A stretch of 18,155 nucleotides of DNA, filler included, from an uncultured virus (IMG/VR IMGVR_UViG_2061766007_000220) (lineage: Duplodnaviria; Heunggongvirae; Uroviricota; Caudoviricetes). It is 2 parts of one record of this genome, joined end to end, with 100 filler letters (N's around TTAATTAATTAA, not from the genome) between each part and the next. Parts side by side here need not be neighbours in the genome. Positions count along the whole stretch, not along the records: positions 1 to 17,363 come from IMGVR_UViG_2061766007_000220; 1 more part is not named here. One strand, 5' to 3'. Below, piece by piece: positions 4,103-10,295 of the stretch. Under the pieces are notes generated by a model. That model was not told the origin of the DNA and made no database searches. It saw nothing but the letters and a program-made list of their open reading frames with translations. Within the stretch, counting starts at the first letter, position 1. The number at the start of each line of letters is the position of its first letter. Made by a program: the position numbers and the translations under genes.

Positions 4103-4275
4103 TACTGCTCTCCCTTCTCTCCGTTGATCTCATCCAATACCGAACCGATGTAATGCGATATGGTCTTTTTCGCATCGTCAAGGTCTATCTTTCCGTTGAC
4201 TGCTTTGGCTGATAAATCGCCCATTACTTCCGCCCATGCCGTAATAAGTTTGGTATTCTTTTCTTCGAGTGTCAT
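4102..4275 (-). CDS. Hypothetical protein (57 aa)
   Basis: MTLEEKNTKLITAWAEVMGDLSAKAVNGKIDLDDAKKTISHYIGSVLDEINGEKGEQ, coupled by ATGA and TAATG overlaps on either side. A variant copy lies at about 17687-17806. Confidence 0.7.
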   Translation of the reverse strand: MTLEEKNTKLITAWAEVMGDLSAKAVNGKIDLDDAKKTISHYIGSVLDEINGEKGEQ

Positions 4276-4625
4276 TTGATCGTACCGTCCTTTCTCATGT
4301 TTTCAACGTGTCTAACCGCATTTTGTATAAATGGAAGTATGCTAGGTAACGCAATTCCATTTCCCCATAATTTGTACTCCGCACTGTCTGAATGTTCTAC
4401 GTCAGCGCACCAGTCAACCGGAAATCCTTGTAGCGCAGCGCACTCTGTAGGTGTTAAGCGTCTTACCTCGTACTCTGATTCCATTTCTCCGCTCCTTTCA
4501 ATTATCACGCCATGTCTTTCTGTGGAGTTTAGGGTATATTGTTCTCTATCTCCTTGTGAGATACCCTCTCCACAATGTGACGGTCTTTGACCGTTTCCTT
4601 CAAATGTTCCGTGAACTATAACCAT
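4272..4625 (-). CDS. C5 cytosine methyltransferase C-terminal polypeptide (last TRD-like module plus motifs IX-X)
   Basis: VRRLTPTECAALQGFP (motif IX) and YKLWGNGIALP (motif X), with its own RBS (GAGG) and ATG. Confidence 0.9.
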   Translation of the reverse strand: MVIVHGTFEGNGQRPSHCGEGISQGDREQYTLNSTERHGVIIERSGEMESEYEVRRLTPTECAALQGFPVDWCADVEHSDSAEYKLWGNGIALPSILPFIQNAVRHVENMRKDGTIK

Positions 4626-5774
4626 TTCTTTTCCTCACAAGAACCGCTATTTGATCGTGCATACAGTTTAGTGTCGGACATAGTTTGTGAAGTTTCAACT
4701 GTTGAAGCTGCCCGTTTCCGATGCACCATGACGTACTGTTGCCCCCCCCNNNNNNNNNNACTACAACGCCCGTTCCGTGAAACCTTTTGAGGTATTCGGA
4801 TTAGCAGAAAACATTACCGGTTTAGGATTTGACGTACCGCACGATAATGTTCCTTGCTATGGATATTATCTCAAATGGGATGATAGAAGAATCCTATATC
4901 TGACAGACTTGGAGTATTGCCCTATCGACTTGTCCAAAATCACACCTACTGACGTGATAGTAGAATGTAACTATTGCGAGNNNNNNNNNNCTGACATTAT
5001 GTGTCGGCTTTGAACATCGCCAGGATTTAAGCAGGCCATACTATCGCTCTCCTTTTACCTGTTTCACTGTCGTTTTCGGAACAAAGAGTGTTTGATCTTG
5101 GCTAATCCCAAGTGTCGCCGAAAGGTTTTCTTGTATCAAAGCCCCTTTTCCGGCTTTCTTGCCTTTACTATCCACTTCACACCCCCCCGAACTTTTAAGG
5201 TGTAAACTATCGCCTTTTCTGTAGTATCAGTTTGTTCTGAACCACTTGCTCTTGCTGACACCATTTGTGATCTGTCGCACATAGCGCTCCTATCTTATCT
5301 TGGTAAATCAACCACTGACTTTCTGCAACATACGGCCGACCCCCCCCGTGCCACTAAAGCGGGTTCTTCGTTTTCAAAAACTTGGAAGTCGTATTTTGCA
5401 TTGTAGCCTTGATTCCATGCGTACCGGTCTAGTCCGTATGCTAATTTGTCGTTATCAGGGCTGTCGTTTGCTTGTTTTGCCTCTTCTTCAATACGCACGG
5501 ATACCCTTGCCCCGCTTGACCCCCGCCTATCGAAATTGCCGTGTGCTTCTCTTTCGTCAGCCAACATTCGCCATTTCCTTTCGATACTACTCCATATGCT
5601 TTTGTAAAATCAGTTTGCTCTGTCGGAGTGCAAAATGATTGGTGTATTACCGCCCCCCGTGCCATACCTTGCCGTAACACTATTTCCGACTGTTCGGCAT
5701 TCCGTGACTCGACTATCTTGCGGGTGATGGTCGTAGTATATGTATCGACATCGGGGGTCATAAGTTTTTTTGAC
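4600..5774 (-). CDS. Array of overlapping short reading frames encoding methyltransferase TRD-like modules
   Basis: Modules lie in different frames: 5610-5774, 5441-5761, 5295-5567, 5207-5340, 5041-5282 (shifted at G7), 4991-5039 (cut by gap) and 4600-4749. Each complete module has a TL-like motif. Positions 4760-4980 are an unrelated misplaced contig. Confidence 0.7.
4760..4980 (+). other. Misplaced inverted contig: middle part of the MBL hydrolase gene
   Basis: Reverse complement nearly identical to 9946-10079 (NVPCYGYYLKWDDRRILYLTDLEYCP), flanked by N gaps. Confidence 0.9.
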
Positions 5775-6585
5775 TTACTCCGTCAGCAGCTTCTGTAACT
5801 CCGCTTCTGATATATTCGCTTGCGCTAACAATGCGTTCTTCAAGACTTCGGGAAGCGTCTTGCCACGTTTCTCGGATCGCCTTAAAATTCCAAGGCAAGC
5901 CTTTGCGCTCAAAAAGTATTTCTGTGGCACTGTTTCCTGTAAAATCTGCCACAAGAAAGACTCTTCTACGTCTCTGTGGCACTCCTTCGTTAGCTGCGTT
6001 TCGGACACACCATGCGATGCTCCATCCGTTACCGTCCAAACATCCGGCATTTGTCCACTTTCCGTTTTTAGGCGAAGGTACATGAACTTCGGGGTCGATG
6101 ACCCTTGCGATTTCTTCAAGGACGCACCTAAAATCTTCTCCCTTGGGGTTTCCTGATGACAATGCTCCGCAGACATTTTCCCAACACCAGATGTAAGGCC
6201 TGACGTATTGAATAGGCTTATCTGATTGTCGCATTCGTAATTGTTCAAATTCATGTTCGCGCATCTCCTTTGTGATTCTAATTACTTCATGGAAAAGGCT
6301 CGATCTCGTATCAGAACCTTGTTCCATTCCCTTGCGCTTTCCGGCAACGGAAATATCCTGACATGGACTCGAATTAGTCATTATGTCGCAAGGCTCTATG
6401 TCGTAACCGCTTACCTTTGTTATGTCGCCAAGCTGCTTGCATTCAGGAAAACGCTTTGCTTCAAGCCGAACTGGAAACGGCTCTATCTCGCTCTCCCATA
6501 TCGGTGTTGCTCCGCACAACTTGGCGGCTAATTCCCATGTGCCTGACCCCGAAAAGAAATTTCCCAGTGTCACTCTCTCACTCAT
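5758..6585 (-). CDS. C5 cytosine methyltransferase catalytic N-terminal polypeptide (motifs I-VIII)
   Basis: FSGSG (I), LGDI (III), SPCQDIS (IV, catalytic Cys), WENV (VI), PQRRRRVF (VIII); RBS AGGAG. Confidence 0.95.
   Translation of the reverse strand: MSERVTLGNFFSGSGTWELAAKLCGATPIWESEIEPFPVRLEAKRFPECKQLGDITKVSGYDIEPCDIMTNSSPCQDISVAGKRKGMEQGSDTRSSLFHEVIRITKEMREHEFEQLRMRQSDKPIQYVRPYIWCWENVCGALSSGNPKGEDFRCVLEEIARVIDPEVHVPSPKNGKWTNAGCLDGNGWSIAWCVRNAANEGVPQRRRRVFLVADFTGNSATEILFERKGLPWNFKAIRETWQDASRSLEERIVSASEYIRSGVTEAADGVSQKNL
5775..6254 (-). CDS. Alternative-frame methyltransferase subunit nested in the catalytic gene (M.EcoHK31I beta-like)
   Basis: 159-aa ORF in the +1 frame ending LWQILQETVPQKYFLSAKACLGILRRSEKRGKTLPEVLKNAL, the segment expected after motif VIII. 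AAGGAG lies upstream of the ATG. Confidence 0.75.
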   Translation of the reverse strand: MNLNNYECDNQISLFNTSGLTSGVGKMSAEHCHQETPREKILGASLKKSQGSSTPKFMYLRLKTESGQMPDVWTVTDGASHGVSETQLTKECHRDVEESFLWQILQETVPQKYFLSAKACLGILRRSEKRGKTLPEVLKNALLAQANISEAELQKLLTE

Positions 6586-9710: not shown

Positions 9711-10295
9711 TCAAAGTCCTATTGTTAAACCTTTCCTCGCCACATAGACATGAGCAGTTTCAGCAACAGTCGAAATCGTTTTTGTAATTTCGTCAGGGTC
9801 GCTTGTGTCAAGTCCTCGGTGACAAAGAATCACATTTTTAAGTTCAGTGCTTGCAACGTGCTTAACGAAGTCTTTGCAAGCCTTTAATCCCATATGTCCG
9901 AGAAGTTTATGCCTTATATTATCCGCTTCCATGTCAACCATATCCTCGCAATAGTTACATTCTACGATCACGTCAGTAGGTGTGATTTTGGACAGATCAA
10001 TAGGGCAATACTCCAAGTCGGTCAAATAAAGGATTCTTCTATCATCCCATTTGAGATAATATCCATAGCAAGGAACATTNNNNNNNNNNNNNTGCATCAA
10101 GAGTTTTTCGAGTGCTTGCGTGTGGTCTTTGTGAATGTGACTAATCAATACACCGCGTATCTTTGTCACGTCGAACCCCAACGCTTGCTTAATCTCTTTA
10201 ATGCTCATTCCCGCATCAAGAATCACATCTGAAATGCCATCACTTAAAATGTACGCATTTCCACTACTGCCCGTTCCGACAACCTTTAATTCCAT
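9711..10295 (-). CDS. MBL-fold metallo-hydrolase (phage nuclease type); partial variant copy at 10315-10517
   Basis: GTGSSGNAY, LDAG, ISHIHKDH (HxHxDH), TD, ECNY and GHM motifs. Confidence 0.92.
   Translation of the reverse strand: MELKVVGTGSSGNAYILSDGISDVILDAGMSIKEIKQALGFDVTKIRGVLISHIHKDHTQALEKLLMXXXXXNVPCYGYYLKWDDRRILYLTDLEYCPIDLSKITPTDVIVECNYCEDMVDMEADNIRHKLLGHMGLKACKDFVKHVASTELKNVILCHRGLDTSDPDEITKTISTVAETAHVYVARKGLTIGL

Follow-up and report, generated by a model that had tools for sequence, protein, structure and literature searches.

The multispecific C5 cytosine methyltransferases of Bacillus phages SPR, phi3T, rho11, SPbeta and H2, known from the Trautner laboratory, carry tandem target recognition domains (TRDs) within one polypeptide. 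Here, we analyzed an 18,155-nucleotide (nt) stretch of DNA from an uncultured virus (IMGVR_UViG_2061766007_000220), hereafter called the window, whose minus strand encodes a single C5 cytosine methyltransferase locus between positions 6585 and 4272. This locus resembles the Bacillus phage enzymes in being a phage C5 methyltransferase with TRDs in a row between motifs VIII and IX that are gained, lost and reordered. Unlike those enzymes, which are encoded by one open reading frame (ORF) and have no slippery tracts, it has staggered frames, poly-G runs inside its modules and a hidden ORF. The likeness to SPR and phi3T is architectural and does not come from sequence comparison. We consider it probable, with some reserve, that the locus is a multi-TRD phage C5 methyltransferase encoded as overlapping short ORFs, the cassettes of which are switched by poly-G slippage. 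Judging from the relatives compared, it is probable that the set of methylation specificities in the phage population shifts.

Bacterial phase-variable methyltransferases of Types I and III ('phasevarions') switch by slipped-strand mispairing in repeats (PMC12707154). As in the window locus, the reading frame of a methyltransferase gene is broken or restored when a repeat tract within it gains or loses units. However, the phasevarions are bacterial, with one tract per gene, an on/off outcome and a role as regulators or in defence, whereas the present locus belongs to a phage and has up to 10 tracts, each in a different recognition module. Phage poly-G or contingency loci named in another report (10.1101/2025.10.21.683753) include Fletchervirus receptor-binding proteins, the Bordetella phage BPP-1 methylase gene, a PB1-like baseplate gene and T2/T4. 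These share with our locus hypermutable homopolymers in phage genes that are read as bet-hedging, and one of them lies in a methylase gene, but each of them has a single tract, in most cases within a structural or receptor-binding gene, and none is described there as an array of switched recognition modules. With regard to C5 methyltransferases made in pieces, M.AquI and M.EcoHK31I consist of two polypeptides, and fragment complementation has been shown for M.BspRI, M.BsuRI, M.HhaI and M.SssI (PMC3404938). The window locus agrees with these split enzymes in placing motifs I-VIII on one polypeptide and the variable region with motifs IX-X on another, but they have two pieces only and no tracts, whereas this locus has many pieces with tracts. 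In the literature searched, of which full text was accessible only in part, no published phage C5 methyltransferase with a poly-G-switched recognition-module array or with a hidden ORF was found. The hidden +1 ORF at 6254-5775, which overlaps the catalytic ORF and carries a conserved helical segment past motif VIII, is new here.

Phage methyltransferases are a main escape route from host restriction, and a methylated phage can also become a target of methylation-dependent nucleases. If the modules switch singly by slippage, a phage lineage could hedge between hosts with different defences, and phage methylomes would be far more variable than gene content suggests. The locus also matters for annotation: gene callers fragment such loci or call out-of-frame proteins, and automated annotation would tend to label them pseudogenes.

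Split layout of the methyltransferase locus

The locus begins with a catalytic ORF (alpha) containing motifs I-VIII, continues with about eight TRD-like modules in three frames, and ends with a last ORF containing motifs IX-X. On retranslation, the translations and coordinates of the catalytic ORF, modules 1-8 and the last ORF that had been given in an earlier note, made from the sequence alone, were found to hold. The coding parts are as follows.

5758-6585, minus strand: catalytic ORF (alpha), 275 amino acids (aa), motifs I-VIII; matches PF00145 positions 5-102 (E 1.4e-24) and phrog_116/363 DNA methyltransferase
5610-5774, minus strand: module 1 ('YDHHPQDSRV..ARYGTGGGNTPII'); no start codon; contains the in-frame G6 run at 5653-5658
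5441-5761, minus strand: 106-aa ORF, with module 2 ('AYGVVSKGNGE..SIGGGQAG') as its 3' part and an alternative frame of module 1 as its 5' part
5295-5567, minus strand: ORF with module 3 ('AYGLDRYAWNQG..ALVARGG'); ATG at 5567; cut short past the G8 tract
5207-5339, minus strand: module 4 ('IYQDKIGALCATDHKW..NKLI'); no start codon; terminal stop conserved in relatives
5136-5282, minus strand: mini-ORF with a leader and 'IVYTLKVRGG'; ATG at 5282 with TAGGAG 4 nt upstream; truncated past the G7 tract
5041-5181, minus strand: body of module 5 ('CEVDSKGKKAGKGALIQENLSATLGISQDQTLF')
4991-5039, minus strand: start of the module 6 mini-gene ('MACLNPGDVQSRHI'); AAGGAG 8 nt upstream; upstream stop TAG 4 nt before the ATG
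4600-4741, minus strand: module 7 ('CIGNGQ..PTLNCMHDQIAV'); no start codon; continuous in the C-terminal ORF of relative L004
4272-4625, minus strand: last ORF, 117 aa, with module 8 ('FEGNGQRPSH..YTLNSTERHGV') and motifs IX-X; matches PF00145 positions 258-315 (E 9.7e-9)

The motifs 'SPCQ', 'WENV' and 'QRRRR' are seen in the translation of alpha and are invariant in alignment A1, and 'RRLTP.EC' and 'GNGIAL' of the motif IX-X region are likewise invariant in alignment A2. The last ORF opens with an ATG at 4625, preceded by GAGGA 6 nt upstream. This layout is that of a split C5 methyltransferase, with separate ORFs for motifs I-VIII and for a TRD plus motifs IX-X, the latter having its own start. 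The usual one-polypeptide form is not seen, as motif VIII is separated from motif IX by at least seven frame changes.

Many continuous homologues of the catalytic ORF, 578-745 aa in length, contain the same modules in one frame, and each of the roughly eight tandem modules in the window matches modules of such continuous C5 methyltransferases. Module 1 matches P0092 and has 74-82% aa identity to relatives L001 and L013, with saturated synonymous divergence (dS). Module 2 is 57% identical to residues 201-230 of P0244 (E 4e-9), and module 3 has 84-92% aa identity to L001 and L011 with a nonsynonymous divergence (dN) of 0.08-0.12. In all five viral loci fetched as DNA, the gene is broken past motif VIII, and among the 24 loci obtained from a metagenome scan, L006-L018 and L023 show the same architecture with the break after motif VIII. 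Ten related contigs share both the broken array and the poly-G tracts. The data fit a methylase made in pieces. Its catalytic part always ends just past motif VIII, a position at which natural two-subunit enzymes such as M.AquI, and experimental fragments of M.HhaI, M.SssI and others, tolerate a split and still assemble (PMC3404938). In the distant genomes L004 (identical to L019), L005 and L026, a single G9/G10 directly follows the catalytic part, and one long ORF with all TRDs and motifs IX-X comes after it; L022 is a continuous homologue.

Modules 1 and 3 share a frame, with only one TGA (5610-5612) and the alternative frame of module 2 between them, and a single in-frame TGA likewise parts the catalytic ORF from the next module in L003. 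Read-through of the TGA between modules 1 and 3, or an alternative genetic code, was considered and set aside, as the other genes of the window are intact under table 11.

Poly-G tracts and the proposed switching of recognition modules

Four G/C runs of at least 6 nt are present in the whole window, and all of them lie inside the 1.1-kb variable stretch. The homopolymers were found exactly where the earlier note had placed them (A7 at 5765-5771, G6 at 5653-5658, G8 at 5340-5347, G7 at 5182-5188 and G8 at 4742-4749), and the last of these, which was said to stand at an assembly break, indeed abuts an N run. Apart from the G6 run in module 1, the tracts are as follows.

5765-5771, minus strand: A7 tract at the end of alpha; in the alpha frame it reads A_AAA_AAC, with a +1-frame stop TAA just upstream
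5340-5347, minus strand: G8 tract separating modules 3 and 4; out of frame in the window, and one G fewer fuses the modules
5182-5188, minus strand: G7 tract inside module 5; out of frame in the window, and one base more restores 'TLKVRGGCE..GKGALIQ'
4742-4749, minus strand: G8 tract (at least 8, as it abuts the gap) at the junction of modules 6 and 7; one register reads 'GGQQYVMV..' and another module 7

The claimed frame effects were reproduced as well. Removal of one A from the A7 run makes the catalytic frame continuous with module 1, and an added A makes it continuous with the 107-codon frame of module 2; loss of one G at 5340-5347 fuses modules 3 and 4; and an additional G at 5182-5188 connects 'YTLKVRGG' with 'CEVDSKG..GKGALIQ'. 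In the window as assembled, the tracts at 5340-5347 and 5182-5188 are thus both 'off', and the G6 run at 5653-5658 is in frame. In L013, the 'GGQQYVMV..' register continues in frame into motifs IX-X.

Multiple G runs are found throughout the clade of the window, which is made up of rumen phage contigs (L001=L015, L002=L018, L003=L017, L006, L007/L008, L011, L012, L013/L014 and L016/L023), with 2-10 runs of 7-11 nt per variable region. In ten distinct multi-tract sequences, 54 G runs of at least 7 nt were counted in 15,880 nt of variable region versus five in 63,225 nt of flanks, corresponding to 3.4 versus 0.079 per kb and an enrichment of approximately 43-fold (Fisher p 3e-32). No C run of at least 7 nt was found on the coding strand of these ten sequences; every run reads as G there. 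The arrays of L004, L005, L026 and L022 contain no G run of at least 6 nt despite having 29-40 Gly codons.

Tract length differs even between near-identical genomes. In the pairs with 99.1-99.6% identity, all four indels are in or abut poly-G: L007 and L008 differ by four mismatches over 1692 columns and by two indels only (G9/G7 and G8/G6), and L016 and L023 by seven mismatches over 1004 columns and two indels only (G8/G9 inside alpha and one base abutting G11). Relatives of the window from three other samples depart from it at exactly 5181 and 5339-5340. X5 and X7 each have one additional base at 5181 (C in X5 and G in X7, on the plus strand), which restores 'TLKVRGGCE'; at 5340, X7 lacks one base, so that modules 3 and 4 are fused, and X5 lacks two. 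L006, the alpha of which is 93% identical to that of the window, has G7 in place of the G8 and is in frame there with modules 3/4 fused, and it has G8A in place of the G7, where it is still out of frame. The homologues of the tract at 5340-5347 are in frame in five of eight relatives, and the homologous 'TLK(V/I)R-polyG-..GKGALIQ' tract is in frame in three and out of frame in seven of ten clade sequences. L004 and L005 encode this 'TLK(V/I)R..GKGALIQ' motif without a homopolymer.

A total of 83 tracts of at least 6 nt were examined with a homology-supported frame map in 11 sequences, including the near-duplicates L007 and L008; 26 of them are in frame, 33 are out of frame and 24 are unclear. 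A minimum-cost frame path that allowed cheap shifts only at homopolymers was dropped, as it failed to follow homologous modules. Three features of a contingency locus are found here, namely a coding tract that sets the frame, a length that differs between near-identical genomes, and an over-representation of tracts in the gene. The earlier note had proposed a slippage-switched, multi-subunit methyltransferase, and with respect to slippage the tracts do behave as slippage-prone switches, changing in length between near-identical relatives and thereby changing the frame. Slippage-controlled switching appears well supported by this comparison of genomes.

According to the explanation that we favour, the locus consists of the catalytic ORF, a hidden +1 ORF opening at an internal Shine-Dalgarno (SD) site and ATG, a staggered array of TRD cassettes, and a last ORF with one TRD and motifs IX-X. 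G runs at Gly-Gly motifs inside the cassettes would gain or lose bases via polymerase slippage, and each change would set which cassettes are read in frame and whether these are fused to the catalytic part, fused to the IX-X part or left on their own. The result would be a population containing a mixture of methylase forms with differing sets of recognition modules. The tracts would switch at a high rate within a population, the pieces may assemble like M.AquI subunits and the fragments of split C5 methyltransferases, and switching would alter the methylated sites. The phage could benefit against hosts with different restriction systems, including methylation-dependent restriction. A more far-reaching version is possible but doubtful. 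It supposes a multi-part machine made of a catalytic subunit, a hidden 'hinge' protein, an IX-X core and recognition mini-proteins, each switched by poly-G and docking in trans like HsdS, with neighbouring amino-methyltransferase genes switched in the same way. If it were true, one lineage could generate 2^n heritable, reversible methylation repertoires.

Such a pattern could also arise from a single continuous ORF through homopolymer errors made during sequencing or assembly. Long G runs are error-prone, and the window, whose source sample is a bovine gut metagenome, is a poor, gapped scaffold with 30 N runs and a misplaced piece within the methylase gene itself.

4750-4990, no strand: scaffold defect; two 10-N runs flanking a 221-nt foreign piece (4760-4980), where the true sequence is 42 nt

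The second record of X1 (1632 nt), an independent assembly of reads from the source sample, was compared with 4172-4749 plus 4991-6002 and showed zero differences and zero gaps; in this contig of the source sample itself, 4749 is joined to 4991 by 42 letters. The 221-nt piece was placed on a separate contig of different depth, and its plus-strand translation (frame from 4762) matches positions 117-171 of the metal-dependent hydrolase phrog_392. It is a mis-scaffolded fragment of another gene, and the methylase gene is continuous there. The piece probably belongs in the gapped ORF at 9711-10295, which encodes the same hydrolase family. Because independent contigs reproduce the tract lengths without difference, these lengths are not an invention of the first assembler. 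Moreover, N-free contigs of 11-112 kb from other studies and samples repeat the pattern, roughly half of the frame changes lie away from homopolymers, and more than half of the G7-G10 tracts would need to be wrong. An origin in such errors is therefore highly improbable, and the finding is real and conserved and not an artefact.

Selection on the modules bears on whether the locus is a decaying pseudogene, i.e., an unneeded methylase that gathers frameshifts at mutation-prone runs. Every genome has several out-of-frame tracts, L006 and L021 contain nonsense codons, and cassettes have been lost or gained among close relatives, all of which would be expected of decay. Between the window and seven relatives (alpha 52-77% identical to that of the window), dN was 0.08-0.45 and dS was mostly saturated for modules in all three frames, while reading this DNA in either of the shifted frames gave an omega mostly above 1 (range 0.14-9.5), these being approximate values from segments selected by tblastx, a choice that favours conserved frames. 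The out-of-frame modules, for which the earlier note had asked for such a test, are accordingly under purifying selection by this measure. Neutral decay would not leave one frame per module so much better conserved than the others. The modules keep open frames with low dN and saturated dS across genomes whose alpha is only ~70% identical, the same layout is found in at least 10 diverged genomes, SD/ATG signals are kept, and random decay would not pile up G runs 43-fold on one strand of one region. We regard decay as very unlikely; given the enrichment and variation of the tracts together with purifying selection, neither of the two outcomes that the earlier note had named as fatal to its proposal, sequencing error and pseudogene decay, is likely.

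Recoding at expression offers a different account, in which transcriptional slippage or ribosomal frameshifting yields a full-length enzyme or fixed fusions and the differences in DNA length are incidental. It draws on the A7 tract, where A_AAA_AAC stands in the alpha frame at 5765-5771 and falls within the roughly 14 nt that separate the +1-frame stop from the alpha stop. Seven sequences have A7 at this point (the window, L006, L007/L008, L010 and L013/L014). Many modules also lack start codons, and continuous homologues exist (P0012-P0120 and L022). However, a slippery run is missing where alpha ends in L011, and the run is shorter in L001, L012 and L016. The frame shifts needed at G tracts go both ways (about 15 of 'one base fewer' versus 18 of 'one base more'), which leaves no uniform frameshift rule; five to ten corrections per molecule would make a full-length product very rare; and tract lengths vary, and toggle the frame, in the DNA itself. 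Recoding is in our view rather unlikely.

The frame changes away from homopolymers and the starts of the pieces need to be considered together. The earlier note had stated that frame changes coincide with homopolymers, which is true of about four of the seven mapped changes in the window; the remainder lie elsewhere. Several of the non-tract changes are kept between relatives and resemble gene boundaries. The cassette 'M(A/G/S)CLNP.DVQS', which begins at ATG 5039 in the window, has its ATG in seven of seven genomes and an SD-like site 6-10 nt upstream in six of the seven, and the upstream open stretch ends between -32 and +20 nt from this ATG, though the preceding module differs among genomes. 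The last ORF starts with an SD site and ATG in the window and does the same in relatives at varying positions. For the ATG at 5282, the TAGGAG context is kept in L006, L013 and L016, and the ATG context is also shared with L018, which conservation of the 'IGAL' codons in module 4 might by itself explain. The idea of a multi-subunit enzyme whose pieces have their own ribosome-binding site and ATG is partly supported, by 5039, which is conserved in relatives, and plausibly by the SD-ATG pairs at 4625 and 5282, but not by modules 1, 4 and 7.

These starts, the known existence of split C5 methyltransferases and the conserved non-homopolymer frame changes would also agree with a static split gene, in other words a multi-subunit enzyme of small ORFs in which poly-G is a mere by-product of Gly-Gly codons. 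On the other hand, the same Gly motifs are encoded without homopolymers in relatives, conserved motifs are broken by tracts in some genomes and intact in others, and other G runs of at least 7 nt occur only in alpha, a second methyltransferase gene or NPPY-motif ORFs. We consider a static gene unlikely. Some alternative frames may have a role of their own. In L013, a 189-aa ORF reads module 3, the alternative frame of module 4, and modules 5 and 8; beyond another tract, one register gives module 6 and then module 7, and the other runs in one frame from module 6 through the alternative reading of module 7 into motifs IX-X. These regions (4454-5023 and 4998-5407 of the locus, or 959-1528 and 1503-1912 of the extracted region) suggest that certain alternative frames could serve as bypass linkers chosen by the tract register.

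Several observations weigh against poly-G switching of overlapping short ORFs, in addition to the favouring of conserved frames in the dN/dS segments. The length of the A7 tract is constant in all seven carriers and shows no sign of hypermutability. Modules 1, 4 and 7 have no start codon, which leaves their translation unaccounted for. In an automatic frame map of ten sequences, 42 changes were near a homopolymer and 47 of 89 were not, some of the calls being spurious. Local decay is evident from a TGA in the linker before module 1 of L006 and a stop within alpha of L021. Tract lengths come from assembled contigs and were compared between genomes rather than within populations. Finally, the register of the tracts is near random, with several 'off' tracts at once in most genomes. 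This near-random register, in turn, argues against a single chain with all tracts in frame and for independently switched cassettes.

A hidden +1 ORF inside the catalytic ORF

The 3' part of the catalytic ORF contains a long open frame in the +1 register with its own start signal.

5775-6254, minus strand: hidden +1-frame ORF, 159 aa, overlapping alpha; unconstrained overprinted leader at residues 1-100 and conserved helical segment at about residues 101-159 (window 5778-5954)
6265-6270, minus strand: AAGGAG, the SD-like site of the hidden ORF (ATG 6254-6252), embedded in alpha codons for K-E-M-R

The final approximately 55 codons of alpha are the out-of-frame reading of the conserved segment of this ORF. 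For codons 28-52, counted from the Q of QRRRR, 78 pairs gave mean pairwise identities of 0.43 (frame 0), 0.71 (frame +1) and 0.42 (frame +2), and the comparison of the window with L004 gave 0.12, 0.68 and 0.20 for these three frames. At 30-45 nt beyond the QRRRR Q codon, third-position variability shifts from the wobble position of frame 0 to that of frame +1. From alpha column ~121 to the end (about 150 codons), no stop interrupts the +1 frame in any of 12 genomes, with the exception of one genome in one bin, while a +1 stop occurs in 3-11 of 12 genomes per 12-codon bin in alpha columns 1-120, and the +2 frame has stops throughout. An ATG opens the +1 frame 13-22 nt past the conserved K-E-M-R codons in 12 of 13 genomes; these codons read AAGGAG or GAGGGAG, and their third-position variability is unusually low (0.17).

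Upstream of motif VIII, the +1 sequence is conserved no better than the +2 sequence, and frame 0 is far more conserved. AF2 models gave a predicted local distance difference test (pLDDT) score of 93-96 for residues 111-150, which form three to four helices, and of approximately 50-57, with no secondary structure, for residues 1-100. The notion that the hidden ORF has a conserved 'N-terminal domain' was rejected for the first ~100 residues, where frame-0 conservation dominates and AF2 gives no structure. What is selected in the hidden ORF is only its openness, its start signal and the last ~55 residues. The hidden ORF is a clean, testable case of a long overlapping gene.

A search of 1.84 billion representative proteins returned 2929 matches to the hidden ORF at E<=1e-3. 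Most of these matches are located at the N-terminus of called proteins of 99-620 aa, the long ones of which continue into TRDs and motifs IX-X. The frame of the hidden ORF is continuous with the whole array in L026 (470 aa), and a single poly-G parts it from the array in L004 and L005; in the clade of the window, a stop and then an A run end the hidden ORF just before module 1, which is in the same frame. The hidden ORF had no Pfam match above threshold (DUF7078 appeared only below it), no match in PHROGs, no significant match among PDB sequences (best E 0.76), and only weak three-helix-bundle look-alikes in a Foldseek search against PDB (best E 0.42).

M.EcoHK31I provides a precedent for overlap of this kind, since its small subunit is encoded in another frame within the large-subunit gene. 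A second open frame with its own start is likewise present here. However, the M.EcoHK31I small subunit carries motif IX, which was not found in the hidden ORF, whereas the conserved part of the latter is the helical segment past motif VIII. Proteins P0133, P0146, P0166 and P0184 resemble the hidden ORF and run through TRDs and motifs IX-X into a motif I-like 'SLFDGIGGF..EIEEFP..RFP', ending after 'RFP'. As far as their sequences tell, this suggests that they are circularly permuted or rearranged core pieces of another subfamily.

Cassette turnover, selfish elements and neighbouring genes

Cassettes differ among the closest relatives of the window. A 194-nt block of module 2 (window region 5448-5619) is absent in L006 and is represented by 145 other letters in X5. 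Where the window has the 11 nt at 4611-4621, X5, X6 and X7 have 131 letters; these three and L006 contain an extra ~120 nt at this point, which is another TRD-like cassette.

The five tracts found outside the variable regions comprise one in alpha (L016), one in a phrog_799 ORF, and three in NPPY-motif or homologous ORFs as judged by eye; outside sites include L001:7106-7114, L011:130-140, L008:6324-6330 and L013:7074-7081. The ORF at L001:7070-7672 matches the DNA methyltransferase phrog_799 (E 2e-58) and has a G9 run 12 codons in, which is in frame; the L011 homologue, with G11, is out of frame. From these sites, poly-G switching seems to extend to other methylases of these phages.

The ORFs near the locus match phage families, including RecT-like and SbcC-like proteins, an ERCC4-type nuclease and a metal-dependent hydrolase, and the window further encodes an endolysin, a sigma factor and a radical-SAM protein. 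The window is phage DNA, because the neighbouring ORFs match phage recombination and replication families. A nucleotide search of phage records gave only short matches with 60-80% identity, none of them informative.

The catalytic ORF is a target of selfish elements. An intein with matches to Hint and intein Pfam families is inserted at the Pro-Cys motif in the 96%-identical P0001 and in eleven others (P0001-P0011 and P0013 altogether), and in L002/L018 a homing endonuclease with NUMOD4 and HNH_3 domains is fused to the end of the catalytic ORF (L002:4001-5293). In one lineage (L016:752 region and L023:395), a poly-G run of G8 or G9 lies inside the catalytic ORF between motifs VI and VIII, and the called protein P0124 consists of the catalytic N-terminus fused to the +1 frame through a poly-G run of this type.

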